Made by a program: the position numbers and the translations under genes
Notes under the pieces: model-generated
Databases searched by the model: none
What the model was told of the DNA's origin: nothing
The model's input: only the letters and a program-made list of their open reading frames with translations
Origin: an uncultured Acidobacteriota bacterium
Lineage (GTDB): Bacteria; Acidobacteriota; UBA6911; RPQK01; JAPXNP01
Length of the DNA stretch: 64,000 bases
Assembly: GCA_963823995.1 (NCBI GenBank)
Contig: CAWGNQ010000005.1
Span: forward strand, 706,510 to 770,509
Direction: 5' to 3'
Shown here: positions 3,767 to 30,573 of the stretch, piece after piece
Numbering within the stretch: the first letter of the stretch is position 1
Layout: each line of letters opens with the position of its first letter

Positions 3767-3823
3767 CGCCCCCGAAAATTGACGGGCCCTGCCAGAATTC
3801 AAGGGGTGACAAGGAGTTCACCG

Positions 3824-6307: not shown

Positions 6308-6337
6308 TCGGCTGGAACCGTTCCGGATCATGCCGAC
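6308..6337 (+). terminator. hairpin downstream of copA (gtcggc...gccgac stem, inner ggaaccgttcc palindrome); no U-tract
   Basis: Inverted repeat seen directly after the copA stop in the convergent intergenic region. Confidence 0.25.
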
Positions 6338-6418
6338 TCGGACGTCGGTGCTTCAGGGCAGCCCTCTCCGGTGCCGCGAAGCGCAGCTTCGACATCGGAA
6401 CACACAAGGGTGCTCACA

Positions 6419-6979
6419 CTACTTGGGAACCGGGTGGCTGATCTTCTTCCACATCTGGTCAAAGTCGAAGGAGGAAAAGGTCGGGCTTTCCTCGTTGTGA
6501 CACCCCACGCACAGTTCCTTGGGATTGTCTTTGTAGAGAATCAAGCCGTTCGCAACGGCCTCCTGCTCGTCCTTCATCACTTTGATCGACTTGTAGTCGG
6601 AACCCGGTCCGTGACAGGTTTCGCACTGCACCCCATCTTCGATCTTGAAGCGCTTGCCGAGACGTGAGGGATCGATATTGTATCCGGTTGCGTGGCACTT
6701 CAGACACGCATCCGAGCCCCACGGTTCTCCCTGAATTCCCTTTTCCTTGGCAATCTGCTGGGACTTTTCGCTCTTGAGCACTTCGTAGGCATGAGAATGC
6801 AGACTGTCCTGCCAGATCCGCAGCTGATCCCCCTGCTTTTCGGATCTGTGACACATTCCGCACACTGCGACCCCCTCATAGGAATGATCATCCGAGGTCT
6901 TTGGCGGCTGGGTGGCCCCGAAGCAGGTACCAAGCACGAAGATGAAGCCGGCTACGGCTGGCAATGCCCATCGTTTCAT
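6419..6979 (-). CDS. tetraheme cytochrome c (cytochrome c554-like family), secreted
   Basis: Signal peptide; four CxxCH motifs (CGMCH, CLKCH, CETCH, CVGCH). Confidence 0.85.
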   Translation of the reverse strand: MKRWALPAVAGFIFVLGTCFGATQPPKTSDDHSYEGVAVCGMCHRSEKQGDQLRIWQDSLHSHAYEVLKSEKSQQIAKEKGIQGEPWGSDACLKCHATGYNIDPSRLGKRFKIEDGVQCETCHGPGSDYKSIKVMKDEQEAVANGLILYKDNPKELCVGCHNEESPTFSSFDFDQMWKKISHPVPK

Positions 6980-7088
6980 AGTCAGACTCCTCCCTTTTTC
7001 CTGATGTGACCGTTACTTTCACTCTACCAGAAAGGATGGATACTGGGGCATAAACCCGGAGGACGCTCTCTTATTTTGAGGTTTCCGC

Positions 7089-8204
7089 CTAGATGGCAAA
7101 TGGAACCCCATCCTGGTCTTCGGCCGGGCTGGGAAGGCGGAGTGCCACGGTGAGTCCACCCGTCTCGTTCCGCCTGGCGGTGATCCCGCCTCCATGATTC
7201 CGAATGAGCTGATCTGCTATCGACAGACCGAGGCCGGTTCCCTGCGCCTTCGTCGTGAAGAAAGGGTCGAAAATGCGCTCCAACTTCCCGTCCTCGACTC
7301 CCGGACCGGTGTCCGACACCTCAACGATCACCGAATTGGAGTTCGGATCCTCGGAACACACGAGAGTCAGAATCCCCCCCTCCTCCATGGCCTCCACTGC
7401 ATTGAGAAGGACATTCAGGACCACCTGACGGATCTGGTCCTCGTCGGCCGAGACTCGACCCGTCGTGCAGGAGCACCGGCGCACGATCTTCAGCTTTCGT
7501 CTCGATGCCAGGCCCTCCACCAGACTGATGGTGGCGTTCACCAGGTCGTGAATGTCCTTCGATTCGATCCTGGGCTCGGGTGGACGAGCAAAGCGGAGAA
7601 ACTCTGCGATCAGATTGTTGATCCTCGTCACCTCCTGTCGAACGATGTCGCCAAATTCCTTCTTCTCCTCAGCCGTCGGACCCGTTGCACACAGAATCTC
7701 GACGGCTCCTTTGATCGACGCCAGCGGATTGCGAATCTCGTGAGCGATCCCGGCGCTGAGTTGGCCGAGAGCCGCCAACCGGTCCGCCCGCCGCAGGCTG
7801 TGCGTCGTCGCCTTCAGCTCGGCATACGCTTCGGCAAGTTCCGAGGAGATGGCCTGCGTGCGTCGCAATTGACTCTGGAGCCTGCCCGAAAGCGATCCCA
7901 CGAGCAGCGCCATGAAGTTATAGAGAACCAGGTGGGATAGCGGATCGAGCAGCTCATATTGCCCGAGCCCCGTTACAATGTGCACCAGATAGACCAGACT
8001 TACGAACAGAGCTATCGCCAGGCCGGACCCGACGCCATACCAGAAGGCGATCAGCAGGATCGGTATGTAGTAAAGATGTTCGTACAGGTCATGGAGCTCG
8101 AGCCGACTCATGGGGCTGATGAAGTGCAGCACCGAAACGAGCAGAACTCCGGCCAGGCAGAATGCCCAGCAAAGCAGATCCCTGCTCGACCACTTTCGAC
8201 TCAT
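7089..8204 (-). CDS. sensor histidine kinase, intramembrane-sensing type, no cognate response regulator nearby
   Basis: Four N-terminal TM helices without a periplasmic domain. H-box HEIRNPLASIKGAVEIL, N-box LLNAVEAM, G-boxes DTGPGV / GTGLGLSI. RBS aaggag before ATG at 8204 (track ORF extends to 8306). Confidence 0.9.
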   Translation of the reverse strand: MSRKWSSRDLLCWAFCLAGVLLVSVLHFISPMSRLELHDLYEHLYYIPILLIAFWYGVGSGLAIALFVSLVYLVHIVTGLGQYELLDPLSHLVLYNFMALLVGSLSGRLQSQLRRTQAISSELAEAYAELKATTHSLRRADRLAALGQLSAGIAHEIRNPLASIKGAVEILCATGPTAEEKKEFGDIVRQEVTRINNLIAEFLRFARPPEPRIESKDIHDLVNATISLVEGLASRRKLKIVRRCSCTTGRVSADEDQIRQVVLNVLLNAVEAMEEGGILTLVCSEDPNSNSVIVEVSDTGPGVEDGKLERIFDPFFTTKAQGTGLGLSIADQLIRNHGGGITARRNETGGLTVALRLPSPAEDQDGVPFAI

Positions 8205-8599
8205 AGACCGGGCTCCTTGCCTGCTTCGAGATCGTACGACGGCCTGCGATAAATCAGAGTGAAACGACGGGCCGTCGTCGACCATTGGAATCCTTGCTCT
8301 CTTCATTCCCTCACCGGAACGGCTCGCCGTCGGGACGACGAACTCCCTGGTTGTTCTTCAGCAAATCCGACGCCAATCCACGGCTCCTCGGCGAAAAGAC
8401 CGCAGTCGCCCGGAACCGAGAAGGACGGCAGCTCGGCGCAAGGGCTGAGCTGCTTGAAATGGATCAACGATGTGTATCATTTCAATCACCCGAGCCTCGC
8501 TCATTGAGGCCGATTGGGAGGTCGCTCGATCCGGGATGCAACTCCAACCCGGCGTGATGGCGCAGGTTGCGTGTTTGGAGGAGCCTCAGGAACGAGGTT

Positions 8600-8765: not shown

Positions 8766-8900
8766 ATGAATCGATCTACGAGTCCGACGCTTCTTTCCAC
8801 CCTGATCGTAGACGGTGTCCTCACCTCGATCCCGACCCGGCATTACGGCCAGTGGCAGAACAGCGGCGGCATGGGAGGCGGAATGGGCGGTGGAATGTAG
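8766..8900 (+). CDS. 44-aa peptide with C-terminal (GGM)3 tail, first ORF of cus-like operon (hypothetical)
   Basis: ATG 8766, MNRSTSPTLLSTLIVDGVLTSIPTRHYGQWQNSGGMGGGMGGGM*, ends 33 nt before the cusC-like start; gagacgg purine stretch upstream. Confidence 0.3.
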   Translation: MNRSTSPTLLSTLIVDGVLTSIPTRHYGQWQNSGGMGGGMGGGM

Positions 8901-8932
8901 ATGTCGGACCTCCAAGTACGGAACCCTACCCC

Positions 8933-10274
8933 ATGCGAAACGTGATCAACGGATTGAATCATCTCAGAACCCGGATTCTGCTCCTCGGATTCTGCCTGAT
9001 CTTGGCCGAGTCCGAACCTGTGGGCCGGGGATCCAGCGGATGCCCCGCAGACCGATTACTTCGCCGACAGCCCGCAGCTCGGTCGGTACATTCAGGAGGC
9101 GTTGGACCAGAATCCCGAGCTTCGGGAGGCCCTGTCGCGCTACCGGGCGTCACTTCAGAAGGTCCCCCAGGTCACGGCTCTTCCGGACCCGGTGCTCGGC
9201 TACACGCAGTTCATGCGCAGCGTCGAGACACGCGTGGGGCCGCAGGTCAATTCACTGATGATCAGCCAGAAGCTGCCCTGGTTCGGAAAGCTCGACCTTC
9301 AGGGACAGATGGCGGTCAAGGAAGCCGCGGCCCAGTACGAGACGTACAGGGCGATGCAGCGGGAACTGATCGACCGGACCAAGCAGACCTACTATGAACT
9401 CGTCTACATCGATCGGGCGCTCGCCATCACGGCGGAGGAACAATCCCTGCTCGACCACTACGAGCGGCTGGCCGAGTCGCGTTACTCGACCGGCGGCGGT
9501 CTGCAGCAAGCCGTCATCAAGATCCAGGCCGAGCTCACCCGGCTGGTCGATCGAACGAAGATGCTCGATCAGCAGCGGGGCTCACTCGTGGCGCGGCTGA
9601 ATACGCTGCGGGACCTGGCCCCGGAGTCGCCGATCGCCGTGACGGCTCAGTCCGAACTGCCCAAGGTGGCACTCGACCTCCCGAAGCTCTACGCACTGGG
9701 GGAAGACCACCGACAGGAACTGAGGGCCTCGCTGGCCCGGATCGAGAAGAGCGAGCGGGCCATCGACCTGGCCAGGAAGCAGTACTGGCCGGATCTGACA
9801 CTCAGTGCGGGCATGATCAATGTGGAGGGTCGGGAGGATCCGGCCGGTCTGTTGGCGCCTCCGCCCGACAACGGCAAGAACGCTTACAACTTTTCGATCG
9901 GAATCAACATCCCGATCCATCGGGACAAGTACCGGGCCGGGGTGGTCGAGGCTGCCGAAACGCTGTCCGCCAACAAGGACGGTACGTGAACCTACGCAAC
10001 AAGATGCAGTTCGACATTCGGGATCAGGTCCTGCGGCTTCAGACACTCGGAGAGCAGATCGATCTGTACGGAGGCGTTTTGATTCCGCAGGCGGAACAGG
10101 CGCTTCGCTCGACGGAGTCGGCCTACGAGACCGGGCAGGTCGGAGCGCTCGACCTGCTCGACAGCGAACGGTTCCTGCTCCAGACAAGGCTGCTGCGAGC
10201 ACGATACCACGCAGACTATCTCAAGTCCCTGGCTCAGTCTGGAGCGAGCGGTCGGCACGAAATTCCCGAGATAG
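8933..10274 (+). pseudogene. cusC: TolC/CusC-family outer membrane efflux protein, interrupted by at least three frameshifts
   Basis: Signal peptide MRNVINGLNHLRTRILLLGFCLILA in frame 2 (ATG 8933). Mature OMF sequence DYFADSPQLGRYIQEALDQNPELREALSRYRASLQ... in frame 0 to the stop at 9989. C-terminal helices VNLRNKMQFDIRDQVLRLQ...ADYLKSLAQ in frame 2 from 9986. Plausible native end ...LERAVGTKFPR* in frame 0 at 10274, 16 nt before the cusB RBS/ATG. Confidence 0.75.
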
Positions 10275-10326
10275 TCAAGGAACAAAGCCATGAAAAAGGG
10301 AATCTTACTGAGTCTCGTGTCCTTTC

Positions 10327-11832
10327 ATGGTCGGCATCGGCATGGCAGGAGTCGTTCTGGTCAACCCCTACCGCTGGGGGTGGGCGGACAGCCTCCACCA
10401 TTCCGTCGCCGGACTCGTCCACGGACCCGAAGAGGCAGCCTCGGAGTCTGCCGAGGGACAGCTTTGGACCTGCGGGATGCATCCTCAGGTCGTCGAGGAT
10501 CATCCGGGAACTTGCCCCATCTGCGGAATGGACCTGATTCCGCTGAAAGGCTCGACCGGAGGACAAGCCATAGAGACTGCAGCCGGCCAGAAAGGAAAAG
10601 GCCGGAGCGAAGGTGAGCGAAAGATCCTCTACTGGCGCGCGCCGATGGATCCGACCTATACCTCGGACAAGCCGGGGAAATCGCCGATGGGCATGGATCT
10701 GGTCCCGGTCTATGCCGACGAAGCCGCCGGAGAGGGGTCGTCCGCCAACACGATCAAGATTGATCCGACCTTCGTCCAGAACATCGGCGTGCAGACGACC
10801 CCGGTCAAGCGTCAGGACATCCCTTTCACGATCCGAACGGTCGGAAACGTCACCTACAACGACGAACAAGTCCACTGGGTGAACACGAAATACGACGGCT
10901 GGATCGAGAAGGTCTATATCAACTACGTCGGGCAGCCTGTGAAGAAGGGACAGAAGCTCTTCGAGATTTATAGCCCGCAACTGGTCACCACCCAGCAGGA
11001 ATATCTCGATGCCCTCGACTACGCCGAGAAACTGAGCACGAGCCCCTATCCCGACATCAAAGAACGGGCCCGGTCCCTGCTGGAATCCTCCCGTCAGCGG
11101 CTCGCCTACTGGGACATTCCGAACGATCAGATTGCAGAACTGGAGAAGACCCGGAAACTTCTTCGCACCCTGAGCGTCGTCTCGCCGGTGACCGGGATGG
11201 TGGTCGAGAAGATGGATCAGGCGCTGGAAGGGATGCACGCGAAAGCCGGCATGAATCTCTACAAGATCGTCGATCTTTCGACGATCTGGGTCGAGGCGGA
11301 CATCTTCGAGAACCAGATCCCGTGGCTCAAGACAGGTCAGCCTGCAACGCTCGAATTCCCGTATCAGCCAGGCCGTAAATTCCGGGGAAGGATCCGGTAC
11401 ATCTACCCCTATTTCGATGACAAGACGCGCACGATGAGGGTCTCCCTCTCCCTTCCGAACCCGGGGCTCGAGTTCAAGAAGGACATGTATGTCAACGTGA
11501 CCTTCGACGTGCCCTCCGCTCACAACGTCATCACGGTTCCGGAAGAGGCCGTGATCCACAGCGGCGAGCGCAACGTCATCGTTCTGAGTCGCGGCAACGG
11601 GGAGTTCGAGGTCCGGGACGTCACGCTGGGCCTGAACGGCAGCGGCCTCTATGAGGTCAAACAGGGGTTGAAGGAAGGCGAAGAGATCGTCGTATCCTCC
11701 CAGTTCCTGATCGACTCGGAAAGCAATCTCAAGGAAGCCATTCGGAAGATGGTGGCGAAGAAGAGCGCCGCGGCGGAGAAACTGGAGAAATCCGAAGACA
11801 TGCAGGATATGCAACCGGCGACTGAGGATTGA
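10327..11832 (+). CDS. cusB: HME-RND membrane fusion protein (CusB-like) with N-terminal HMBD
   Basis: CGMHPQVVEDHPGTCPICGMDL and YWRAPMDPTYTSDKPGKSPMGMDLVPVY (CusB metal-binding N-terminus); beta-barrel/lipoyl MFP core. An RBS-preceded ATG at 10290 (MKKGILLSLVSF) lies in a different frame, suggesting a 1-bp indel at the T-run ~10322. Confidence 0.9.
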   Translation: MVGIGMAGVVLVNPYRWGWADSLHHSVAGLVHGPEEAASESAEGQLWTCGMHPQVVEDHPGTCPICGMDLIPLKGSTGGQAIETAAGQKGKGRSEGERKILYWRAPMDPTYTSDKPGKSPMGMDLVPVYADEAAGEGSSANTIKIDPTFVQNIGVQTTPVKRQDIPFTIRTVGNVTYNDEQVHWVNTKYDGWIEKVYINYVGQPVKKGQKLFEIYSPQLVTTQQEYLDALDYAEKLSTSPYPDIKERARSLLESSRQRLAYWDIPNDQIAELEKTRKLLRTLSVVSPVTGMVVEKMDQALEGMHAKAGMNLYKIVDLSTIWVEADIFENQIPWLKTGQPATLEFPYQPGRKFRGRIRYIYPYFDDKTRTMRVSLSLPNPGLEFKKDMYVNVTFDVPSAHNVITVPEEAVIHSGERNVIVLSRGNGEFEVRDVTLGLNGSGLYEVKQGLKEGEEIVVSSQFLIDSESNLKEAIRKMVAKKSAAAEKLEKSEDMQDMQPATED

Positions 11833-14800
11833 TCTTCATGCTCGAGAAAATCATCGACTGGTCCATCAAGAACAAGTTCTTCGTCCTGCTGGCGACGGTC
11901 TTCGTGATCCTTTGGGGCGTTTACTCCCTCCAGAATATGCCGTTGGACGCTATTCCGGATCTGTCCGACGTGCAGGTCATCATCTACACGGAGTATCCGG
12001 GTCAGGCGCCCCAGGTCGTCGAAGACCAGGTGACTTACCCGATCTCGACCCAGATGCTGGCCGTTCCCTATGCCAAGGCCGTGCGCGGCTACTCCTTCTT
12101 CGGTTTCTCGTTCGTCTACATCATTTTCGAGGACGGCACGGACATGTACTGGGCCCGCAGCCGCGTCCTCGAGTACCTGAACTACGTCTCCGGCCGGCTT
12201 CCCAAGGGCATCACGCCCACCCTGGGGCCGGATGCGACCGGGGTCGGGTGGGCGTACATGTATGCCCTGAAGTCGAAAACCAGAAACCTGTCGCAGTTGC
12301 GCAGCCTCCAGGACTGGTTTCTGAAGTATGAACTGACGTCGGTCGAGGGTGTCTCGGAGGTGGCCAGCGTCGGCGGCTTCGTCAAGCAGTATCAGATCGC
12401 GGTCGATCCCAACAAGCTTCGAGCCTACAACATTCCCCTTTCCAAGATCCGGATGGCCGTCCAGCGCAGCAACAACGACGTGGGCGGAAGAGTGCTCGAG
12501 ATGGCCGAGACCGAGTTCATGATCCGGGGTCTTGGCTACATCAAGAACCCCGAGGACATCAAGGAGATCGTCCTGGGCGTCGACGGATCGGGCGTTCCGA
12601 TCCTGATGAAGGACGTGGCCACGGTCCAGGTGGGCCCCGACATCCGCCGGGGCATCGCAGAACTGGACGGAGAAGGCGAAACCGTCGGTGGGATCATCGT
12701 CGTCCGCTACGGCGCCAATGCCTACGGCGTCATCCAGAGAGTCAAACAGAAGCTCGAAGAGCTGAAGCAGGGCTTGCCGTCGGATGTCGAGATCGTGCCC
12801 GTCTACGATCGAACCGCCCTGATCGAGCGTTCGGTCGAGACGCTGCGGGGGAAACTGCTCGAAGAAGGGATCGCCGTCGCGCTCGTGTGCATTCTCTTCC
12901 TGCTCCACCTCCGCTCGGCACTGGTCGCCATCATCACCCTCCCCATTGCCGTCTTGATGGCCTTCATCGTCATGCACACTCAGGGGATCAACGCGAACAT
13001 CATGTCGCTCGGAGGGATTGCCATCGCGATCGGTGCCATGGTGGATGCTGCGATCATCATGATCGAGAATGCCCACAAGCATCTCGAACACGACAAGGGG
13101 AAGAAGGATCACTGGCAGATCATCGCGGATTCTGCCAAGGAAGTCGGCCCGACTCTCTTCTTCGCGCTGCTCGTGATCACCGTTTCCTTCGCTCCGGTCT
13201 TTACGCTCGAGGCACAGGAAGGACGGATGTTCAAACCGCTGGCCTTTACCAAGACCTACTCCATGGCGGCGGCTTCCGTTCTGGCCGTGACGCTGATCCC
13301 GGTCCTGATGGGTTACTGGATCCGGGGAAAGATCCGCTCCGAAGAAAGGAACCCGATCAGCCGCTTCATGATCTGGGTCTACGATCCCATCCTTCACTTC
13401 ATGCTCCGGTGGAAGTGGACGGTCCTGCTGGTCACGGTGCTGACCCTGGGCTCCATGTACATCCCTTACTCCCGGCTGGGATCGGAGTTCATGCCGCCCC
13501 TGTGGGAAGGGGATCTCCTGTACATGCCGACGACGCTTCCCGGCATCTCGATTACCAAAGCCCGGGAACTGCTGCAGCAGACCGACAAGATCATCCGGAC
13601 CTTCCCGGAGGTCGAACGGGTCTTCGGGAAGATCGGTCGTGCGGACACCGCCACGGACCCGGCGCCCTTGAGCATGATCGAGACAACGATCACGTTGAAA
13701 CCCGAAGATCAGTGGCGCCCCGGGATGACCTCGAAGAAGCTGATCGCTGAAATGAACGAGGCCATCCAGTTCCCCGGGGTCACCAACGCCTGGACGATGC
13801 CGATCAAGACGCGCATCGACATGCTTTCGACGGGGATCAAAACGCCGGTCGGCGTCAAGTTGTCGGGCCCGGAGCTCTCCGTGCTCCAGGATCTCGGCGA
13901 GGAGATCGAAGCGGTCGTCCGCAACGTGCCCGGTACGCTCTCGGTCTACTCCGAGCGCGTCATGGGCGGGAACTTCCTCGATTTCGATATCGACCGCAAA
14001 GCCCTGGCCCGCTACGGGCTGACGGTCGGCGACGTGCAGGACGTGATCCAGTCCGCCATCGGGGGTATGAACGTGACGACCACGGTCGAAGGCCTGGAAC
14101 GGTATCCGGTCAATGTCCGCTACAGCCGGGAACTACGGGACAACATCCAGGACCTCGAGAACATCCTCGTCGCGACGCCGATGGGCGCCCAGGTGCCTCT
14201 CGGCTACCTCGCGCACATCCGGATCAAGAAGGGGGCGCCGGCCATCAAGACGGAAAACTCGCGGCCCAATGCCTGGATCTACGTCGACATCTCGGATGTG
14301 GACGTGGGGACGTATGTCGCCATGGCTCGTCGGGCCGTCGCCGAGCAGGTCGAGATGCCGGCCGGCTACAACATCGTCTGGAGCGGTCAGTACGAATACA
14401 TGCAGCGCGCCAAGCAGCGGCTCATGTATGTGGTCCCCATGACCCTGATGATCATCTTCGTGATCATCTACCTGAACACCCGGTCGGTGATGGAGACCGT
14501 GATCGTGCTCTTCGCCCTTCCCTTCTCCATGGTCGGCACCTTCTGGCTGCTCTACCTGCTGAACTACAATCTGAGCATCGCCGTCTGGGTCGGGATCATC
14601 GCTTTGGCCGGTCTGGCGGCGGAGACGGGAGTCGTGATGCTCCTGTACCTGGATGTCGCGTACGAAGAGGCTGTCCGAGACGGACGGATGCGAAGGCGAA
14701 AGGAGCTCATCGACGCTATCTTCCAGGGCGCCGTCACCCGTGTGCGGCCCAAGATCATGACGGCGAGCGTAATCCTGGCCGGCTTGATTCCGATCATGTG

Positions 14801-14966
14801 GAGCCACGGCACGGGTGCCGACGTCATGAAGCGCATCGCCGCCCCCATGGTCGGCGGCATCATCACGTCGGTGATCCTCACCCTCGGCGTCTATCCGGTC
14901 ATTTACTACCTGTGGAAGGGATGGGAAGTCAAAGATGTGGAAGCAGAAGTGGATGCAACTGAATAG
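11829..14966 (+). CDS. cusA: heavy-metal efflux RND pump (CusA/CzcA family)
   Basis: 1045 aa, 12-TM RND with IPDLSDVQVIIYTEYPGQAP N-terminus; ATGA overlap with cusB stop. Confidence 0.95.
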   Translation: MIFMLEKIIDWSIKNKFFVLLATVFVILWGVYSLQNMPLDAIPDLSDVQVIIYTEYPGQAPQVVEDQVTYPISTQMLAVPYAKAVRGYSFFGFSFVYIIFEDGTDMYWARSRVLEYLNYVSGRLPKGITPTLGPDATGVGWAYMYALKSKTRNLSQLRSLQDWFLKYELTSVEGVSEVASVGGFVKQYQIAVDPNKLRAYNIPLSKIRMAVQRSNNDVGGRVLEMAETEFMIRGLGYIKNPEDIKEIVLGVDGSGVPILMKDVATVQVGPDIRRGIAELDGEGETVGGIIVVRYGANAYGVIQRVKQKLEELKQGLPSDVEIVPVYDRTALIERSVETLRGKLLEEGIAVALVCILFLLHLRSALVAIITLPIAVLMAFIVMHTQGINANIMSLGGIAIAIGAMVDAAIIMIENAHKHLEHDKGKKDHWQIIADSAKEVGPTLFFALLVITVSFAPVFTLEAQEGRMFKPLAFTKTYSMAAASVLAVTLIPVLMGYWIRGKIRSEERNPISRFMIWVYDPILHFMLRWKWTVLLVTVLTLGSMYIPYSRLGSEFMPPLWEGDLLYMPTTLPGISITKARELLQQTDKIIRTFPEVERVFGKIGRADTATDPAPLSMIETTITLKPEDQWRPGMTSKKLIAEMNEAIQFPGVTNAWTMPIKTRIDMLSTGIKTPVGVKLSGPELSVLQDLGEEIEAVVRNVPGTLSVYSERVMGGNFLDFDIDRKALARYGLTVGDVQDVIQSAIGGMNVTTTVEGLERYPVNVRYSRELRDNIQDLENILVATPMGAQVPLGYLAHIRIKKGAPAIKTENSRPNAWIYVDISDVDVGTYVAMARRAVAEQVEMPAGYNIVWSGQYEYMQRAKQRLMYVVPMTLMIIFVIIYLNTRSVMETVIVLFALPFSMVGTFWLLYLLNYNLSIAVWVGIIALAGLAAETGVVMLLYLDVAYEEAVRDGRMRRRKELIDAIFQGAVTRVRPKIMTASVILAGLIPIMWSHGTGADVMKRIAAPMVGGIITSVILTLGVYPVIYYLWKGWEVKDVEAEVDATE

Positions 14967-15654
14967 GTTCGTGCTTTTGTCCATCGCGTTGGTGGGGTTC
15001 TCGGGCTCCTCGCTCGCCGCCGAGAGCCTGCACGTGCGACACGATCATGACCCGTGGGGCAGCTGTACGGGCGAGCTCACGATCGCCTCGGACGGAATCC
15101 GGTATCACTCGGACGACAAGGACGAACACAGCCGCGACTGGTCCTGGACCGACATCCAGACCGTCGACCGCCTCTCCGCCGATCGCTTCTCCATCCTGAC
15201 CTATCAGGACCAGAAGTGGCTGCTCGGTCGCGACCGGCCTTGGGACTTCACGGTTCTCGACCCGGAGGCCGGCGGCCTGACCGACCAGCTGTTCACGGTC
15301 ATCCGCCGGAACGAACCTCGTCCCCTCGTAGATCGCGTTCCGAGGAAGATCGAGGCCGACTACCGGATACCGGTCAAGCACCTGCATACCTTCGGCGGCT
15401 GCGAGGGGATCCTCGAGTTCAGCCGGGACTGGATCGTCTACACGACCGATCACAAGGAGGACGCGCGAACCTGGAGACGCGACAAAGAAGTGGTAAGCAT
15501 CTGGTCGACCGGACTCTTCGACCTCGAGCTCGAAGTCTACGAAAAGGACGGCGAGGACCTCCTGCGGACCCGTCGCTACCGTTTCGAACTGAAGGAGCCG
15601 CTGGACGAAGCGTATTACAATCGATTGAAACGGGAACTCATCCCCACGAGGTGA
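14935..15654 (+). CDS. secreted hypothetical protein with two ~90-aa internal repeats, co-transcribed with cusA
   Basis: Overlaps cusA 3' end. Signal peptide. Repeats HDHDPWGSCTGELTIASDGIRYHSDDKDEHSRDWSWTDIQTV and KHLHTFGGCEGILEFSRDWIVYTTDHKEDARTWRRDKEVVSI (G.C.G.L....D.I.Y..D.K...R.W....I). Confidence 0.6.
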   Translation: MWKQKWMQLNRFVLLSIALVGFSGSSLAAESLHVRHDHDPWGSCTGELTIASDGIRYHSDDKDEHSRDWSWTDIQTVDRLSADRFSILTYQDQKWLLGRDRPWDFTVLDPEAGGLTDQLFTVIRRNEPRPLVDRVPRKIEADYRIPVKHLHTFGGCEGILEFSRDWIVYTTDHKEDARTWRRDKEVVSIWSTGLFDLELEVYEKDGEDLLRTRRYRFELKEPLDEAYYNRLKRELIPTR

Positions 15655-15658
15655 CCCC

Positions 15659-16147
15659 TTGGTCCGACAGATCATTGCATGTGCGATCATCCTTGCCCTG
15701 GCCGGCGGCCTGGCCTACTACTTCTGGCCCGCCCAGGAGCAGCTGTGCCCCGTCTGCGAGAGGCCGATTCACCGGGCGACGTCCTACTTCGTCACACTGG
15801 AAGACGGGAAAACGGTCGAGCTCTGCTGTCCTCGCTGCGGCCTGCGCTTCCAGCAGAACGGCGGAGACGTCCAGTCGGTCCAGGTGACGGACTATGACTC
15901 CGGCAAGAGGTTGGATCCGGACGAGGCCGTCTATGTCGAAGGCAGCTCCGTCCACCCCTGTTGCACGCAGGAAGAGATCATGAAGGATCAGGCCGGAATG
16001 GAGTACGAACGAACGTGGGACCGGTGCCTTCCGAGCGTGATCGCCTTCGCATCGAGGGACGCCGCCGTGAGATTCCGGGCGGAGCACGGCGGACAAGTGC
16101 GGACCCATCACCAGATCCTCGCAGAGATTCAGACCGGTGTGTACTGA
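15659..16147 (+). CDS. NosL-family copper-binding protein, TM-anchored
   Basis: CPVCERPI (cf. NosL CHVCGM), CCPRCG, DEAVYVEGSS and C-terminal LPSVIAFASRDAAVRFRAEHGGQV, which matches the NosL C-terminal SLASFAEEQDAKALAGMHGGRV region. Confidence 0.6.
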   Translation: MVRQIIACAIILALAGGLAYYFWPAQEQLCPVCERPIHRATSYFVTLEDGKTVELCCPRCGLRFQQNGGDVQSVQVTDYDSGKRLDPDEAVYVEGSSVHPCCTQEEIMKDQAGMEYERTWDRCLPSVIAFASRDAAVRFRAEHGGQVRTHHQILAEIQTGVY

Positions 16148-17477: not shown

Positions 17478-18665
17478 CTAGCGCTTCGGGTCCTGGGACG
17501 GGACCATGCTTCGTTTCTCCAGCTCCCTGTCGGCCTTCCGTTTCAATTCGGAGAGCCGCTGGTATTCGGCACGCTCCCGGAGCGCGTCCTCCTTTCGGCC
17601 GGCCTTCAGGTACGCGCTCGAAAGAGGCAGCCGATTCTCGGGAGCCATCGGAGCAAGTTCAATCGCGGTCTCCAGCTCTCGAATGGCTCCGGCAACGTCG
17701 CCGGTCTCCAGGAGGATCCGACCGAGCGCGTTGTGGCCTGCGAATTGTCCTGGCGCCGTCTCCGTGGCTCGTTCCGCAAACGGCCGAGCCTTCTCGTACT
17801 CGCCTCTCCGAATATACTCGAAGGCGAGTTGCATGAGCGCCGGGATGTCGTCAGGAGAGCGTTTCAGCTCCTCGAGAAATTCTTCCAGCGCCGCATCGGT
17901 ATGATCCCGCAGGAGAAACGCACCATAGGCATAGTGGATGCGGGGCTCCTGCGGGAAGCGCTCGATCAGCCGACGGTACAGCTCATCCGCCTCTGTTCGT
18001 GCGCCGCGCTCCGCTTCGAAAGCCGCCCGGCCCGTCATCTTGACCAGCTCTTCCTTTTCGGGGGGAATCTGGGTCGGGAGATAAGGCATCCGGAGAGCGC
18101 TCAGACCCAGTCCGAGAACGACTCCGGGGCTTTTCTGGTTCTCGTACGCGAAGATCCGCAGGGCATCATACGAAGCATCGAACTGCCCGAGCCGATTCAA
18201 GCAGATCGCAGCGTGGTAGCGAATCGTCGCCAGCATCTGCGGATTCTCTCCCAAACCGAAGATGCGACCCTGCTGAAAATCCTCGAGGGCTCGTTGGTAT
18301 TCACCCGTCTGAAACTCGCAGAGACCCTTCAATGCCACCGCCGGACCGTGATGAGGCCAGCGACCGACGAACTGTTCGAAGACTTCGAGTGCTTCATCGT
18401 AACTCCGTCGGTCGTAAAGGATCGTTCCAAGGTACCACCAGCCCTCCCGCCAGTCGGGCCGAAGCGCAATCGCCTTTCGGTAAAGCTCGACGGCGTCGTC
18501 GAGTCGGCCCGTTGTCCTTGCTGCACCCGCACGGTTGGCCAGTGCCTCGAAATCGTCTTCTGCCCGGCAGTAGTCGCTCGCCAGAAGTACGACCGAGAGG
18601 GCCACCGCCGCAAGAAGCAGGGTACTGCGAAGTCTTTGAACCATGATCCGGGCGAATTCTACCAC
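17478..18665 (-). CDS. secreted TPR-repeat protein, paralog family A (copy 1)
   Basis: Signal peptide; GWWYLG, RYHAAI, HYAYG; C-terminal RERAEYQRLSELKRK. ATG at 18644 more likely start. Confidence 0.8.
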   Translation of the reverse strand: MVEFARIMVQRLRSTLLLAAVALSVVLLASDYCRAEDDFEALANRAGAARTTGRLDDAVELYRKAIALRPDWREGWWYLGTILYDRRSYDEALEVFEQFVGRWPHHGPAVALKGLCEFQTGEYQRALEDFQQGRIFGLGENPQMLATIRYHAAICLNRLGQFDASYDALRIFAYENQKSPGVVLGLGLSALRMPYLPTQIPPEKEELVKMTGRAAFEAERGARTEADELYRRLIERFPQEPRIHYAYGAFLLRDHTDAALEEFLEELKRSPDDIPALMQLAFEYIRRGEYEKARPFAERATETAPGQFAGHNALGRILLETGDVAGAIRELETAIELAPMAPENRLPLSSAYLKAGRKEDALRERAEYQRLSELKRKADRELEKRSMVPSQDPKR

Positions 18666-18899
18666 CGCGAGGGATCGGGGCGCCGAATCCGCCGTTTCGG
18701 CAAAGCATTTGAGGCCGCTGTCGATGGCGACTCACTACACGGAACCCGAGAGACTCTCCGTCGGGTTTGGAGTGTCCGATCGGCTTCGCGTAGAATGACA
18801 CGAAGATCGTGTGTTCTCGGGATGTCCATGGCCAGATGATCCGACGACGGCCGCTGGTCATGCAGGGGGACATGAGAGTCGGCATTGGAGCAGGTTTGC

Positions 18900-20072
18900 A
18901 TGCACGAGCGATCACTGAAAGCCCGACTTCTCTTTGGCGTGCTCGCCTTCATCCTGCTCATCGGAGTCGGCCGGGCCGCCATTTCCAGCCAGGACTTCGA
19001 TGAGCTGGCCAGAAAGGCCGCCCGCCAACGCACCTCGGGACAGCTCGATGAAGCGGTCGGTCTGTATCGAAAACTCGTGGATTCCCGGCCCAATTGGCAG
19101 GAGGGCTGGTGGCGACTCGGCACGAGCCTCTACGACCTTGGCCGCTACGACGAAGCCCTCAGGGTCTTCCAGGATATGGTCTCCCGCTGGCCGTATCACG
19201 GACCGGCCATCGGCCTCATCGGCCTTTGCCAGTTTCAACTCAGAGAGTATGAACGCGCACTTCAGAACTTTCAGAAGGGGCACGTCCTCGGATTCGGAGA
19301 CAACCCCGCCCTGGTCTCGACCATCCGTTACCATGCCGCCATCGTCCTGAATCGTCTCGAGCGCTTTGAGGCAGCCTATGCGGCCTTGAAGACCTTTGCC
19401 CTCGAAGGCACCAGGAGCAGAGGGATTGTCGAAGCCTTCGGCCTGAGCGTCCTTCGGATGGCTTATCTGCCGGAGGAGACCCCGAGCCAAAAGAAAGCCG
19501 TCGTAACGGCGGCAGGCCGCGCCGCGTGGGAAGCGGAGCATGGCAATCGCGAGGCAGCCGACGAGCTCTACCGACAGCTCATTGCCGATTTCCCCGATCA
19601 GCCGAATGTCCACTATGCATACGGCCGTTACCTGCTCGCCCTCGATCCCGGCCCCGCACTCGAGCAGTTCAAACAGGAGCTCGAGCGGGAGCCCGACAAC
19701 GCGACCGTCCTCCTCCAGATCGCTCTCGAGTACATTCAGGAGGGCCGTTTCGAGGAAGCCCGACCTTACGCCGAGCGGGCGGTTTCAGCCGATCCCGGGC
19801 AATATGCCGCTCACAGCGCGGTCGGCCAGATCCTGCTGGAGCTGGGCAAAACCGACGAAGCCATCCGCGAGCTCGAACGTTCCCTCGAGTTGGAGCCCCT
19901 GAGCCCTGAAAGCCATTATCTGTTGGCACAGGCGTACCTCAAGGTCGGAAGGAAGGAGGAAGCGCTGCAGCAGAATGCCGAATTCAAACGCCTCTACGAA
20001 ATGAGGCGGCAGGCCGATCAGGAGATTTTGGGATCCCGGGTCGAAGCTCCCTCGTCTGCGCCACGCCATTAG
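18900..20072 (+). CDS. secreted TPR-repeat protein, paralog family A (copy 2)
   Basis: Collinear similarity to 17478-18665 and 20079-21236 products; RBS ggag 9 nt before ATG 18900. Confidence 0.8.
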   Translation: MHERSLKARLLFGVLAFILLIGVGRAAISSQDFDELARKAARQRTSGQLDEAVGLYRKLVDSRPNWQEGWWRLGTSLYDLGRYDEALRVFQDMVSRWPYHGPAIGLIGLCQFQLREYERALQNFQKGHVLGFGDNPALVSTIRYHAAIVLNRLERFEAAYAALKTFALEGTRSRGIVEAFGLSVLRMAYLPEETPSQKKAVVTAAGRAAWEAEHGNREAADELYRQLIADFPDQPNVHYAYGRYLLALDPGPALEQFKQELEREPDNATVLLQIALEYIQEGRFEEARPYAERAVSADPGQYAAHSAVGQILLELGKTDEAIRELERSLELEPLSPESHYLLAQAYLKVGRKEEALQQNAEFKRLYEMRRQADQEILGSRVEAPSSAPRH

Positions 20073-20078
20073 CGCAAA

Positions 20079-21236
20079 TCATTGCAGGATCTGCATGGAC
20101 TCTTTCTTGAGCTTGGAGAGACGTTCGAATTCCGCTCGCTCCCGGGCGGCCTCATCTTTCATCCCCGCCTTCTGGTAGGCACGTGCCAGCGTGAAGCGGA
20201 CTTCGGGTGACATCGGATCCAGTTCGGCCGCCTTCTTCAATGCGTCGAGCGCCTCCGGCAGTTGACCCTCCTCGAACCGAATCTGACCCAGGGCATAGTA
20301 TGCAACGAACGAAGAAGGATCGATCTGAAGCGCCTGCTCGGCATAGGGGAGCGCCTCATCGAAACGCCCCAGTTCGATGTAGCCCATGGCAAGCTGAAGC
20401 AGCGACGGGAGATGGTTCGGTGAGACCTTCAGCTCGGCCTCGAACTGCCCCATGGCGTCGTCACGGCTGTGCCCCTGCAGACCTCGCATTGCGGACAAGG
20501 CAGCGCCGAAGGCATAGTGAACGATCGGTTCTTCCGGATACTGTTCAACGAGCTTTTGATACGCCTTTTCGGCGGCATCGAAGTGATAGGCTGCAGCCTC
20601 GTACGCGGCAGTGCCCGCCTCGAGGATGAGCTCCCGCCGCTTGGGGGGCACCTCGGTTGGCAGCCAGTTCATTCTCAACGACGCCAAGCCAAAGGCTTCG
20701 ATAATATCTGGAGTTCGTATATCATTGATGGCAAATGCTTTAAGAGCCTCAAGAGCATCCTCGAAGCGACCCTTGTGACTGAGAAGGATGGCCAAATGGT
20801 AGCGAACGACGACCTCGAGCTGGGCATTCTGGCCGACTCCGATGCTTCGAGCCTTCCTAAGACTCGAAAGAGCGGAATCGTATTCGCCGGTCCGAAAGTC
20901 GCAGAGACCGAGAAAAGCCCAACCCAGCCCATTCTCCGGAGCAAGCTCGACGAGCCTCTCGAAGTAATCCCTGGCTTCCGCATGGCGATCGCCGTCATAG
21001 AGGAGAGTGCCGAGGTACCACAGCCCCTCCAGCCATTCAGGACGAAGCTCGACGGCCTGGCGGTAGAGCTTGACCGCATCGATCAGACGGCCCGCTTCAC
21101 GGGCTTCGGCGGCCTGCCTCGAAACCGTCTCGAAGTCCCCGCAAGACACGTCTACCCCGAATAGCACGGGAAAGGCAAGCAGGGCAAGCAGGGCGACGAC
21201 GGTTCGCCCTCTACGATGACCAGTGCGCAGCAACAT
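20079..21236 (-). CDS. secreted TPR-repeat protein, paralog family A (copy 3)
   Basis: LWYLGTLLYD, VRYHLAIL, VHYAFG, C-terminal RERAEFERLSKLKKE. Confidence 0.8.
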   Translation of the reverse strand: MLLRTGHRRGRTVVALLALLAFPVLFGVDVSCGDFETVSRQAAEAREAGRLIDAVKLYRQAVELRPEWLEGLWYLGTLLYDGDRHAEARDYFERLVELAPENGLGWAFLGLCDFRTGEYDSALSSLRKARSIGVGQNAQLEVVVRYHLAILLSHKGRFEDALEALKAFAINDIRTPDIIEAFGLASLRMNWLPTEVPPKRRELILEAGTAAYEAAAYHFDAAEKAYQKLVEQYPEEPIVHYAFGAALSAMRGLQGHSRDDAMGQFEAELKVSPNHLPSLLQLAMGYIELGRFDEALPYAEQALQIDPSSFVAYYALGQIRFEEGQLPEALDALKKAAELDPMSPEVRFTLARAYQKAGMKDEAARERAEFERLSKLKKESMQILQ

Positions 21237-23483: not shown

Positions 23484-26400
23484 CTAGAAGTAGAACTTCA
23501 ATGCGACCTCGATGACGCGGTGGCCGTGCTTGTTGGTGACTTGTCCAAACTCGTTGGAGCCACCTGGGAGATACGCAGAGTCAAAGGAGAATCCTTGCGT
23601 CGGATCGCACGTGTCAACGGTTCCACCCACCCCATTCGGAACACCAGTGACTGAGACGTTACACGTGGTGTTGAGACCGAGACGGATGTCCGTGTTCCCA
23701 TTGGTCAGCACCGGGTACGCCTGATTGAACAGGTTAAAGAAGCCGGCCCGGAACTGGAGCCGACGATCCTCGCCAAAGTCGAAGTCCTTGAAGAGGGAAA
23801 CGTCGAAATTCCAGCGAGAAGGCGTCCTCATGTAGTAGGGCGGTGCGAACGGCCCGCTGGTCCCGAAGGCCGGGATCTGCACGCAACTCATGTCGAGATA
23901 CGAGTCGCCCACTTCCGAGCTCGAATTGGCCTGCGGATTACAGGTGTAGACGGGAGCGTTCGCCGTTCTGTAGGCATTCGTCCCAAAGGCCGCCTGCTCA
24001 TAGTCATCACCGCCGGCCGACCCACCGAGCGTTAGCCGAATCGGAGTACCCGACTGGAAGGTGTTGATGCCCGACATCTGCCATCCGTCGAAGACCGCCT
24101 GGGTGAAGCCGTTGCGGAATCCACCCATGGCCAGACTCGGCACCTGATACGTGTACGACAGGTTGAAGATGTGCGTACGGTCGTAGTTCAGAATACCGTA
24201 ATCCCGGTTTCGGACATCCACCGGATCCACCGGCTGGTTGTCGCCGGCCAGCCCGGAACCCAACACCTTTGAGAAGGTGTAAGTCGCATAGTACTGGAAC
24301 CGCTCGCCCGCCTGACGCCGCAGTGTGACCTGCAACGAGTGGTAGTTCGACGACTGGGAGTACTCGGAGTTGTTGATGGTCCCAAAACCCTCGAACGGAC
24401 GGAAAAGAGCCAGCGCCTGGTCATCGAGAGCATAGCGGTTGACCGGGACCGTAAGATCCGAGTTACCCACCGTGCCGCTCAACAACGCCCCTTCCGGGAT
24501 GATGTTGAGGTCACGATAGCCGAACAGATGGCGTCCCCGTGTTCCGACATATGCGGTTTCGAGGATGTTGTCATAGGGCAACCGCGTGGCAACCGAAAAG
24601 CTCATGCTGATCGTCTGCGGGATTTCGACACGTCCGAACGTCTGGGTACCGGTACTGACCGAACCAAGGCGGGCGAACGGGTCGATTTGGCTCATATTAT
24701 TGTAGTTGATCAGCGATCCGTCGGCAAAACCGCCGGAATCATAGTTGATGCCGCCGCTGTTGAAGCGATTCGGCGGTGTATTCAGGATCCAGTACTGGCT
24801 GTTCCCCTGCGGGCGGTTGTAGAAGATGCCGCCACCGGAACGAATCACCAGACTCGCATCGCCGCGCACATCCCAGGCAAAACCAACTCGAGGCATCCAC
24901 AGCGGGTGTGGGTCCTGACTGATCCCCTTGGGAATCTCACCATCGGAGGCAAAAAGCATCCCGTTCGGACGGAACACATCGCCACCCGGGTAAGTCCCGC
25001 CTCCAGGAATGTAGGCATCCGGAGAGAAAGCAACCGCCAGACCGTCTCGCTCGATGTTGTTCGGCCAATAACCGACACGCAGGCCGAGTTCGAGCGTCAA
25101 GCCCGGCCTCACCTTCCAGTTGTCCTGGACGAATCCTTCAACATTCCAGTAGCGGAAATGGCCCACAGGGCCGCTCGTGGTCTGGAAGATCTGTTCAGGA
25201 TGGCCGACCAGCAGGTCGCCAAAGCTGTTGCCGGTCGTACCCCGAACCCAGCTACTGTCTCCCTGGATTGCAAAACCGCCTTCGTCGTCGCCGTTGAAGT
25301 TCTGGATTTTGTTCGCCTGCTCGACGTAACCGCCGAACTTCAGGGCGTGGGCGTTCATCACCTTGTTGACATTGTCGTTCAACGAAATGCTGTCGTTGTG
25401 GGCAAACATCGGCAAACCGCCGGGCTCCCACATGTTGCCGCCCGGGCTGCCCCACATCTGGTAGTTGATGGGGACATAATCGTTCCGGATCAATGCAGGA
25501 TCGAACAACATCTCGTAGTCGCCGAGTCCCAGGGTGGACAGTCGCAGCGATTCGGGATCCTTGTAATCGTTGTCGAGCTTCAACCGGCTGAGGCTAACCA
25601 GCAACTCGTTCGTGGTCGTCGGATTGAGAACCGAAACGAGGTTACCCGATGCGGACCGGCCTAGATTCGTACCCAGAACATGAGACGGCAACTCGAAGTT
25701 GCTCGCCGCCCACCACAGGCCGCGCGCGAAGTCCTGATCCTCGGTCTCGCGGCCAAGGCGAACATACAATTTCGTGTTGTCGGTGAAGTTGTAGTCGAAG
25801 CGCATGATCAGCTGCATGCGGTTAGTCGGGGTCAGCGCGGAATAAAAGTAATTGTAGCGATCATTCCCCGACAGGTTCGGCGTGGGGTAGATGTTCATGA
25901 ACACGAGGCCTTCGGGGGTGGTGTAGTCCGTCAGATCGTTGTTCGGCGCAGGTATTCCCGTTTCCGCTCCCGAAGCCCAGACCGGAAGGTTGACTTGGGA
26001 CGGCTGAGCCAGATAGCTGTCGCGGCCAAGAAATTCGCTGAAGTCTCCGGTCCGCTGCGCCAGCGTCGGAACGACGCCCTGGCTTCCGCCCGTGTCGACC
26101 TGCTGCCGCTGCCATTCCATGCCGACGAAGAAGAACAGCTTGTCACGGTCTTTGTTGAAGTTCGTCCCCGGGATGAGCACCGGACCTCCGACGTTAAAGC
26201 CGGGGTACTGGTACTTGCTCAACGGGCGTTCGATCCCGAAGTAGTTGCGCGAGCGGTCATTTGCGGCCAGCTTGTAGTGCCGGAGGTAGTCATAGACGGT
26301 TCCGTGGAAGTCACTGGTGCCACCCTTGGTGACCGCCGAGATCTGCACACCGCTCGTGCCGTATTCGGCAGAGTAGTTCGAGGTCTGAACCGTAACTTCC

Positions 26401-30526: not shown

Positions 30527-30573
30527 GGTCCGTGCCCCCCGAGAGCCGGGGCCCACACTCCGACCGGAGATGT

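Follow-up and report, generated by a model that had tools for sequence, protein, structure and literature searches.

A 64,000-nucleotide stretch of DNA from an uncultured Acidobacteriota bacterium, referred to here as the window (GC content 60.6%), carries near its 5' end a copper-resistance island in which cusA, the gene for a heavy-metal efflux permease of the resistance-nodulation-division type (HME-RND), is followed by two accessory genes outside the canonical cusCFBA set. Both genes had been pointed out in an earlier note made from the sequence alone, and both prove to be real and to belong to an operon of the Cu/Ag-type CusCBA class. The first, open reading frame 1 (ORF1; 14935-15654, forward strand, 239 amino acids), encodes by its structure model a secreted tandem PH-like protein whose family accompanies cusA across the Acidobacteriota, and the second, ORF2 (15659-16147, forward strand, 162 amino acids), a cysteine-rich protein predicted to be membrane-anchored and to resemble NosL and TRASH domains. 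Accessory proteins that assist HME-RND pumps in the periplasm are known as a class; a largely acidobacterial family with a PH fold and His2Cys triads that is coupled to cusA has no description in the literature searched, and the same is true of its all-cysteine, helix-anchored NosL-like partner. We tentatively favour, at somewhat under an even chance, a reading in which the two proteins form a CusF-independent periplasmic copper relay that runs from ORF2 over ORF1 to the pump.

The nature of the pump is indicated by several features of its permease. The cusA gene (11829-14966, forward strand) scores 1224.8 bits with TIGR00914, and E. coli CusA structures are matched by its product with 1270 bits. 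In the alignment to E. coli CusA the equivalents of the periplasmic methionine triad M573/M623/M672 are conserved, and the motif AIGAMVDAAIIMIEN, which we take to be of the Cu/Ag type, is visible in the fourth transmembrane helix (TM4). Judged by these features the permease is a genuine Cu/Ag CusA. Upstream of it lies the gene of a CusB-like membrane fusion protein with two N-terminal HMBD domains (10327-11832, forward strand; NCBIfam CusB NF007303, 6e-65; Pfam HlyD_D23), preceded by an outer-membrane factor gene that is frameshifted here, which completes the set of a CusCBA-type HME-RND operon. A CusF-like gene was not found in the window, neither by Pfam nor by tblastn with an E. coli CusF query, and none of the loci with called genes has a recorded Pfam match to CusF_Ec. 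A marginal CusF-like tblastn match (E 0.015, same query) has been seen at 9353-9529 of the Bryobacterales locus L052, about 700 nucleotides (nt) downstream of its ORF1 homologue.

ORF1 begins with ATG and overlaps the end of cusA, as the earlier note had described, by 32 nt; a second in-frame ATG at 14953 overlaps cusA as well and matches the N-termini of the homologues better. ORF2 begins with TTG, 5 nt past the ORF1 stop codon, with a GAGG 8 nt upstream. The overlapping start and stop codons of cusA and ORF1 suggest translational coupling. A sequence scan gave neither promoter-like nor terminator-like sites between 14700 and 16500, and the gene after ORF2 is convergent. Third-position GC amounts to 0.82 in ORF1 and 0.80 in ORF2, with 0.85 in cusA; the overlapping open reading frames at 14929-15690 (reverse strand), 15054-15887 (forward strand) and 15638-16111 (reverse strand) show the wrong codon-position GC pattern and were rejected as genes.

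The N-terminus of ORF1, MWKQKWMQLNRFVLLSIALVGFSGSSLAA/ES, resembles on inspection a Sec signal peptide (about amino acids 1-28, 14935-15018, forward strand), after which a first PH-like domain (about amino acids 30-135) and a second one (about amino acids 136-239) follow on the same strand. That the protein is secreted and built of two repeats of about 90 amino acids with His/Cys motifs had been proposed before and is borne out. The two halves match each other weakly by BLAST (E 0.06); the duplication is real, because comparison of the family alignments of the N-terminal and C-terminal halves by hhalign gives 98.4% probability and E 6e-15 over 94 columns. The family had been called unrecognised, and it has remained so, with no Pfam match at E up to 10, no NCBIfam match at E up to 1, no sequence relative in the PDB even by a family profile search and no paper found that describes the ORF1 or the ORF2 family. 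An AlphaFold2 model built on a 35-sequence alignment (predicted local distance difference test, pLDDT, 85.6; predicted template modelling score, pTM, 0.75) consists of an N-terminal helix, the signal peptide, and two units, each of seven strands with a helix at its C-terminal end. Foldseek aligned this model with 48 PDB entries at E up to 1e-3, and the best of them, at E of about 1e-6 and 10-16% identity, are mostly proteins with two PH domains, namely Rtt106, Pob3-M, Spt16-M/SSRP1 and BBS5. The seven-stranded beta-sandwich with C-terminal helix that defines the PH-like superfamily is thereby present in the model twice in tandem, and some distant members of the family exceed the Pfam PH_SLA1 cut-off. 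The model accordingly describes ORF1 as a secreted tandem PH-like protein, which is a statement of fold and not of function. Whether it falls into a well-known non-metal family, as the earlier note had asked, can be answered in part: the fold is a known one, and sequence-level membership is absent. The PH-like fold is generic and does not in itself argue for a function unrelated to metals.

The ORF1 family is large and unannotated. All 134 close homologues are labelled hypothetical, and an exhaustive profile search returned 556 clusters at 50% identity with E up to 1e-3, of which 333 have E up to 1e-10, almost entirely from Acidobacteriota; a tblastn search of 72,556 plasmids gave no match to ORF1. 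In a survey of one genome per species (GTDB representatives) 76 ORF1 loci were found, nearly all in metagenome-assembled genomes of Acidobacteriota (Terriglobia, Bryobacterales, Blastocatellia, Aminicenantes, Pyrinomonadaceae), the other labels being one Gemmatimonadales and three Heliomicrobium. Of the 76 loci, 62 have a cusA-type gene directly upstream of the ORF1 homologue, with 51-93% identity to the CusA of the window and a gap between BLAST segment ends of -22 to 393 nt. Overlaps of 1-4 nt are frequent, the called genes of L002 and L003 overlapping by 4 nt. Six further loci carry a co-oriented RND gene at a distance of 1-5 kb upstream; of the other eight, five offer less than 1 kb of sequence on the upstream side. 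Equally, four of four more distant homologues without complete triads (see below) overlap the RND stop codon in operons of the order OEP, CusB with HMBD, RND and tandem-PH gene. Synteny with cusA, the loss of which had been named in advance as speaking against the proposal, has therefore held.

Each PH-like domain of ORF1 carries two histidines and a cysteine on the hairpin between its first two strands, beta1 and beta2; in PH domains this hairpin is the classical ligand-binding loop. Site 1 in domain 1 (15040-15066, forward strand) comprises H36 (15040-42), H38 (15046-48) and C44 (15064-66), and site 2 in domain 2 (15379-15402, forward strand) comprises H149 (15379-81), H151 (15385-87) and C156 (15400-02), embedded in the motif KHLHTFGGCEG, which is invariant in the 35-sequence alignment. 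In the model of both domains the H-x-H is placed at the end of beta1 and the cysteine at the start of beta2, and the two histidines, H(i) and H(i+2), would share one face of beta1 with the cysteine opposite H(i) on beta2. C44 and C156 are the sole cysteines of the mature protein, which has no methionine at all. Conservation of the triads was scored across 266 family sequences, with the first 120 homologues counted as close. Site 2 reads HHC in 114 of the 114 gap-free sequences among the close homologues; 44 of the distant members have HHC as well, and in the others most of it is substituted, frequently the whole triad (RRS, LGS). For site 1, HHC is found in 82 of the close and 50 of the distant members, and most others have HKG, LKR and similar; in 18 distant members it is HHG, with both histidines retained. 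Site 1 has consequently been lost in many homologues, and site 2 is far more conserved. The triads appear to behave largely as units, mostly kept or replaced whole, and such near all-or-none conservation of three spatially close residues is what a metal site predicts.

ORF2 consists of an N-terminal transmembrane helix (amino acids 2-23, 15662-15727, forward strand) and a soluble domain, modelled by AlphaFold2 with a pLDDT of 88.3. Many of its 226 homologues carry a faint NosL annotation. The Pfam NosL model (PF05573) is matched with 28.2 bits against a cut-off of 24 and by residues 125-156 only, which correspond to positions 98-129 of the 131 of the model; there is no NCBIfam match, and a profile search against the NosL sequences of the PDB remains weak (E 0.12-0.28). 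The best whole-domain Foldseek match is S. denitrificans NosL (7og7, E 1.5e-4, template modelling scores, TM-scores, 0.52/0.62), and the NosL of the NosDFYL complex is also matched (7znq_L, E 3.7e-4); the two beta-beta-alpha-beta sub-domains of the NosL fold can be recognized in the model. Taken alone, the first sub-domain has a weak likeness to the zinc ribbons of ribosomal L24e (probability 0.8-0.9, E 0.16 or higher).

The family conserves seven cysteines, along with a nearly invariant H38. The cluster C30-x2-C33-x22-C56(C57)-x3-C60 (15746-15838, forward strand), to which H38 belongs, has a spacing of the TRASH type, C-x2-C-x19-22-C-x3-C. Residues 30-60 fit this pattern, and the Pfam models of the TRASH/YHS type are not significant (best E 0.65). 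The two remaining cysteines, C102 (15962-64) and C123 (16025-27), flank an insertion of about 20 amino acids (15962-16027, forward strand). In NosL, C59, C62, C88 and D92 bind Zn(II) (Prasser et al., PMC8457098), and C62, M64 and M145 (S. denitrificans numbering), which are strictly conserved and essential, bind Cu(I) (PMC8457098). With the N-terminal residues matched by motif spacing and not by structural superposition, C30, C33, C56 and C60 are spaced like the Zn(II) ligands, with a cysteine of C56-C57-x2-C60 in place of the aspartate. C33 of the CPVC motif (C30-x2-C33) matches Cys62 of the copper site, and both methionines are replaced: a nearly invariant Arg35 stands where NosL has the first, and C123, within an invariant WDRC123LPS, comes within about one residue of the loop Met109 of A. 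cycloclastes NosL in the HMMER alignment. No lipobox is conserved in the family, and ORF2 was rejected as a lipoprotein, Cys8 being too near the N-terminus and not conserved. The helix of the family is plain and hydrophobic, preceded by K/R and followed by acidic residues, by which the soluble domain should face the periplasm according to the positive-inside rule; for this domain as for mature ORF1 we infer a periplasmic location.

From the earlier description of ORF2 as a NosL-like protein anchored by a transmembrane helix, the helix and the NosL fold have been retained; the lipobox and both copper-ligand methionines are lacking. In agreement with what had been stated before, no nos gene, including nosZ/DFY, was detected by Pfam scans of the approximately 33 long open reading frames across the window, and none occurs in five other contexts of the ORF2 family. 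ORF2 was rejected as a bona fide NosL, having neither the methionines that bind copper nor a lipobox nor nos genes around it; the model presents it as a membrane-anchored all-cysteine NosL/TRASH-like protein, akin to NosL at the level of the fold only.

The proposal that the pair constitutes a module has stood in part, since ORF1 is syntenic with cusA and the pair itself is not fixed. An ORF2 homologue lies within 151 nt after ORF1 in about 23 of the 62 cusA-linked loci, and it accompanies 19 of the about 21 ORF1 genes that have kept site 1 versus 3-4 of the about 38 that have lost it. Relatives of ORF2 occur also without ORF1, in one context directly after an RND gene, in another at the end of an operon of MerR, CopZ, HMBD, OEP, multicopper oxidase and cytochrome c genes, and in one locus without metal genes. 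On a Stenotrophomonas rhizophila plasmid (CP031730.1; locus L088, 5803-6375) an ORF2-like domain is fused to HTH_DeoR in a gene annotated as 'DeoR family transcriptional regulator'; all seven cysteines are retained in this relative, with C102 and C123 adjacent. The fusion gene is part of an island with CopC/CopD, DsbA/DsbB/CcdA, a DsbD_2 protein, a cupredoxin-domain protein and cadA, and its product is probably a metal-sensing regulator.

The fusions and neighbours of the ORF1 family elsewhere point in two directions. On the side of metal chemistry, family members are fused to two cupredoxin domains (P0263), to one cupredoxin domain (P0265; L072 7935-9155), to a YtkA/FixH domain (P0355) and, by a weak match, to DUF5818 (P0307). 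In three of the four distant operons the next gene encodes a secreted DUF5818 protein of about 100 amino acids (L083 7756-8088; L084 7724-8029; L086 7747-8067) with the conserved Cys/His motif TDTMC-x3-H...C-x3-C-x2-H. It looks, from this motif, like another uncharacterised small periplasmic metal-binding protein, and no paper mentioning DUF5818 was found. A multicopper oxidase follows the ORF1 homologue in one locus. On the side of the cell envelope, SLT lytic transglycosylase domains are fused to four family members (P0283, P0291, P0298, P0317), and SLT is encoded upstream of the ORF1 homologue in 10 of the 11 loci of the distant, Blastocatellia-type branch, as a gene directly upstream in L066, L068-L070, L072, L073 and L075 and as a Na/H-exchanger-SLT fusion farther upstream in the same operon in L065, L067 and L071. 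The typical order in this branch is RND, Na/H-exchanger-SLT fusion, FtrD-like protein, MacB-type ABC permease, ATPase, tandem-PH protein and LTXXQ/Metal_resist; in L067 an FtrD-like membrane Fe-S protein (5417-5977) and a MacB-type ABC exporter (6004-7998) lie between the HME-RND and tandem-PH genes. Adjacency or fusion of tandem-PH proteins to SLT recurs in heavy-metal efflux operons; the cus operon of the window is without an SLT gene. Clustering of the longest open reading frame downstream of ORF1 over all loci was noisy in this GC-rich DNA, and its usable output comprises NosL-like, LTXXQ and a few other groups.

In the favoured relay, ORF1 and ORF2 would be the distal, co-transcribed members of a cusF-free CusCBA-type Cu(I)/Ag(I) efflux operon. 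ORF2 would be held at the outer face of the inner membrane by its single N-terminal helix, with four cysteines in a structural site of the zinc type and the thiols of C57, C102 and C123 available for transferable Cu(I). It might capture periplasmic Cu(I) at the membrane surface and pass it by ligand exchange to ORF1, each triad of which would bind a single ion of a soft metal, either Cu(I) or Ag(I); ORF1 would then dock on CusB/CusA and deliver the metal to the pump, so that the two proteins together would take the role of CusF in E. coli. This reading is favoured because ORF1 begins within the end of cusA, is widely syntenic with it and is followed by ORF2 with no promoter-like or terminator-like site detected, because each triad has a lone conserved cysteine, is mostly kept or lost whole and is predicted to gather on one hairpin, and because the pump is a true Cu/Ag CusA with HMBD domains on its CusB. 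Equally, it draws on the cupredoxin and YtkA fusions, on metal-type partner genes (DUF5818, LTXXQ/Metal_resist, multicopper oxidase), on the copper contexts of ORF2 relatives, on the NosL fold of ORF2, on the absence of a detectable cusF, and on the co-occurrence of ORF2 mainly with an ORF1 that retains site 1.

Several observations weigh against the relay. About a dozen Bryobacterales homologues are without both triads (LKR at site 1; RRS, RGS or HRS at site 2), have no methionine-rich replacement and still stand directly after cusA, so that the link of the family to the pump is independent of the triad sites and the family must have some function beyond metal binding. The residues conserved family-wide (G46, W69, G98, D100, F105, K148, G155, G158, L160, R178, W180, F217, L219, K220) are, as far as the alignment tells, not classical soft-metal ligands, and the repeated occurrence with SLT domains suggests a part in the cell envelope or in assembly. 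These three are the strongest objections. In addition, a His2Cys set would be equally suited to Zn(II), roughly two in three ORF1 loci, that of the closest relative L005 among them, have no ORF2, and the association of site 1 with ORF2 is confounded by clade and only suggestive. The same triad-less branch, the invariant Trp, Arg, Lys, Asp and Gly residues, the SLT fusions and the upstream SLT genes would be accommodated if ORF1 served the tripartite pump chiefly in its structure or assembly, with the tandem-PH scaffold tying the pump to the envelope (peptidoglycan or membrane) or recruiting partners such as a lytic transglycosylase; the tandem PH modules of solved structures are indeed protein-binding scaffolds. 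The triads would then be lineage-specific additions, a structural zinc or a regulatory site, and not a means of substrate delivery. We regard this account as the main rival, somewhat less probable than the relay: the near all-or-none retention of the triads over wide divergence, a lone conserved periplasmic cysteine that would be unusual in a purely structural role, the metal chemistry suggested by the cupredoxin/YtkA fusions and the metal-type neighbour proteins, and the operon of the window with no SLT gene all run counter to it.

Synteny and triads would be expected just as well if ORF1 acted as a periplasmic metal sensor or gate, in which occupancy of the triads switches binding to CusA/CusB and thereby regulates the pump with no delivery of substrate. 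Two non-equivalent sites, of which site 2 is far more conserved, fit a sensing site and an accessory one, and an ORF2-like domain probably serves as the sensor domain of an HTH regulator. Triad-less homologues would, however, need to be constitutive, and no precedent for such a gate of HME-RND pumps was found in the literature searched; this version is quite improbable in our estimate. Less probable still is that ORF2, with or without ORF1, supplies copper to a periplasmic or membrane cuproenzyme in the manner of NosL and is co-located with the efflux operon only because chaperone and operon both handle periplasmic Cu(I). The NosL fold speaks for it, as does a relative of ORF2 and one of ORF1 adjoining a multicopper oxidase, the former together with a cytochrome c, and NosL homologues outside nos clusters have led to the suggestion of a wider chaperone role (Prasser et al., PMC8457098). 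Against it, the operon holds no cuproenzyme gene and the window no nos gene, the start of ORF2 lies 5 nt after ORF1 within an efflux operon, and the copper-ligand methionines of NosL are missing. That both genes are mere passengers, functionally unconnected to copper efflux, seems hardly credible: experimental characterisation is lacking for either gene and one ORF2 relative resides in a context without metal genes, but the start/stop overlap with cusA is conserved down to about 35% identity (tblastn) across several Acidobacteriota orders.

Most of the data would fit together if binding of the tandem-PH scaffold to the pump were common to all lineages, with the scaffold acting as an adaptor to which one or another small metal-binding partner attaches and, in the majority of lineages, being a carrier of metal as well. 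A more far-reaching proposal would see the tandem-PH protein as a fourth component, so far unrecognised and confined to certain lineages, of the tripartite pumps of the Cus type: a PH-fold copper relay working by His2Cys hairpin sites, whose interchangeable partners (NosL-like, DUF5818, cupredoxin, YtkA, LTXXQ) constitute a CusF-independent loading route into RND pumps, and whose lytic transglycosylase link ties pump function to peptidoglycan remodelling. Taken as one, this proposal is a doubtful one. To our knowledge no PH-fold copper relay is known, and none was found in the literature searched.

Copper delivery to Cus-type pumps is understood almost entirely from CusF of E. coli, and Acidobacteriota are among the most abundant soil bacteria. 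In the Acidobacteriota cus operons surveyed no cusF was detected, and most of the loci surveyed carry an unannotated gene of the ORF1 family. If the metal relay holds true, periplasmic copper trafficking would be extended by a fold and by a set of ligands, His2Cys without methionine, that are both new to it, and several hundred 'hypothetical' sequence clusters would receive a name and a testable function. Equally, the NosL-like ORF2 would show the NosL scaffold to be used beyond maturation of N2O reductase, in efflux and sensing. Should ORF1 prove to be a structural subunit with a link to peptidoglycan remodelling, it would represent an RND accessory of a new kind. Either way, the annotation of metal-resistance genes in soil metagenomes can be improved.

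Upstream of the cus operon, the copper-resistance island includes a CopA-like heavy-metal ATPase of the P1B type (3779-6307, forward strand; Pfam E1-E2_ATPase 1.7e-56, Hydrolase) with an N-terminal YHS and two HMBD domains, in which the classical ferredoxin-like HMA metal-binding domain was not detected; the HMBD type is the one also present on the CusB of the window. A sensor histidine kinase (7089-8306, reverse strand; Pfam HisKA and HATPase_c) is divergent from the operon. The cusC-like outer-membrane factor was traced by tblastn with the intact orthologue of L004 and extends over three frames (8867-10271, forward strand), with open reading frames at 9102-9989 and 9986-10537 and two apparent frameshifts relative to that orthologue at junctions near 9000 and 9985; the latter resembles the loss of one base within a TT run (GACGGTACGTGAAC). 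It represents either a pseudogene or a long-read indel error. On a contig of ENA sample ERZ25039500 (L087, 387-3515) the gene order is the same as in the window, with an identical ORF2 and a 239-amino-acid gene at the position of ORF1. As cusA has been called there as four fragments, assemblies of the source organism are suggested to carry frameshift errors, which bears on the frameshifts in cusC. Downstream, six TPR proteins of about 385-400 amino acids are distributed over 18 kb (17478-18665, reverse; 18885-20072, forward; 20079-21236, 29378-30577, 30574-31776 and 33997-35193, all reverse), the first two of which are clearly similar by eye, and among these genes lie those of a TonB-dependent-receptor-like protein (23484-27083) and a GWxTD-domain protein.

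Compared with known systems, ORF1 shares two consecutive PH-like domains with the histone chaperones Rtt106, Pob3-M and Spt16-M and with BBS5 (probability 1.0). Identity to these modules is 10-16%, with TM-scores of about 0.3-0.4 over the whole module, and they are cytoplasmic or nuclear and not metal-binding; the likeness is one of fold only, with nothing that points to a shared function. ORF2, for its part, has in common with NosL (7og7, 2hpu, 7osf chain H) the fold of two sub-domains (TM-scores 0.52-0.62), the N-terminal CxxC, a C-x3-C that corresponds to the C-x3-D zinc ligands, with cysteine for aspartate, and the C-terminal motif P-x-x-x-x-F-x-S-R-x-x-A-x-x-F. Each is tethered to the membrane, ORF2 by a transmembrane helix instead of a lipobox, with a predicted orientation towards the periplasm. 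It differs from NosL in Arg35 and, approximately, Cys123 at the places of M64 and M145 of the S. denitrificans protein, in the extra 20-amino-acid insertion, in the additional conserved C57, C102 and H38, and in having no nos neighbourhood. With the TRASH/YHS zinc ribbons, among them L24e and the archaeal HTH-TRASH regulators, residues 30-60 of ORF2 share the spacing, along with the weak Foldseek likeness to L24e; TRASH domains are often fused to HTH domains, to which the HTH fusion of the ORF2 relative is a parallel. Unlike a TRASH domain, ORF2 has an additional NosL-like second sub-domain, and neither TRASH nor YHS gives a significant Pfam score. CusF consists of one OB-fold barrel (about 90 amino acids) with His36, Met47, Met49 and Trp44, whereas mature ORF1 would be a tandem PH-like protein of 211 amino acids with His2Cys triads and no methionine, related to CusF neither by sequence nor by fold. 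ORF1 was rejected as a CusF (CusF_Ec) on the missing Pfam match at E up to 10, on its tandem-PH fold and on its lack of methionine. Its gene follows cusA, whereas cusF lies between cusC and cusB. Like CusF, it is nonetheless a small secreted protein encoded within a cus operon, and the role proposed for it is the same, the transfer of periplasmic Cu(I)/Ag(I) to CusB/CusA.

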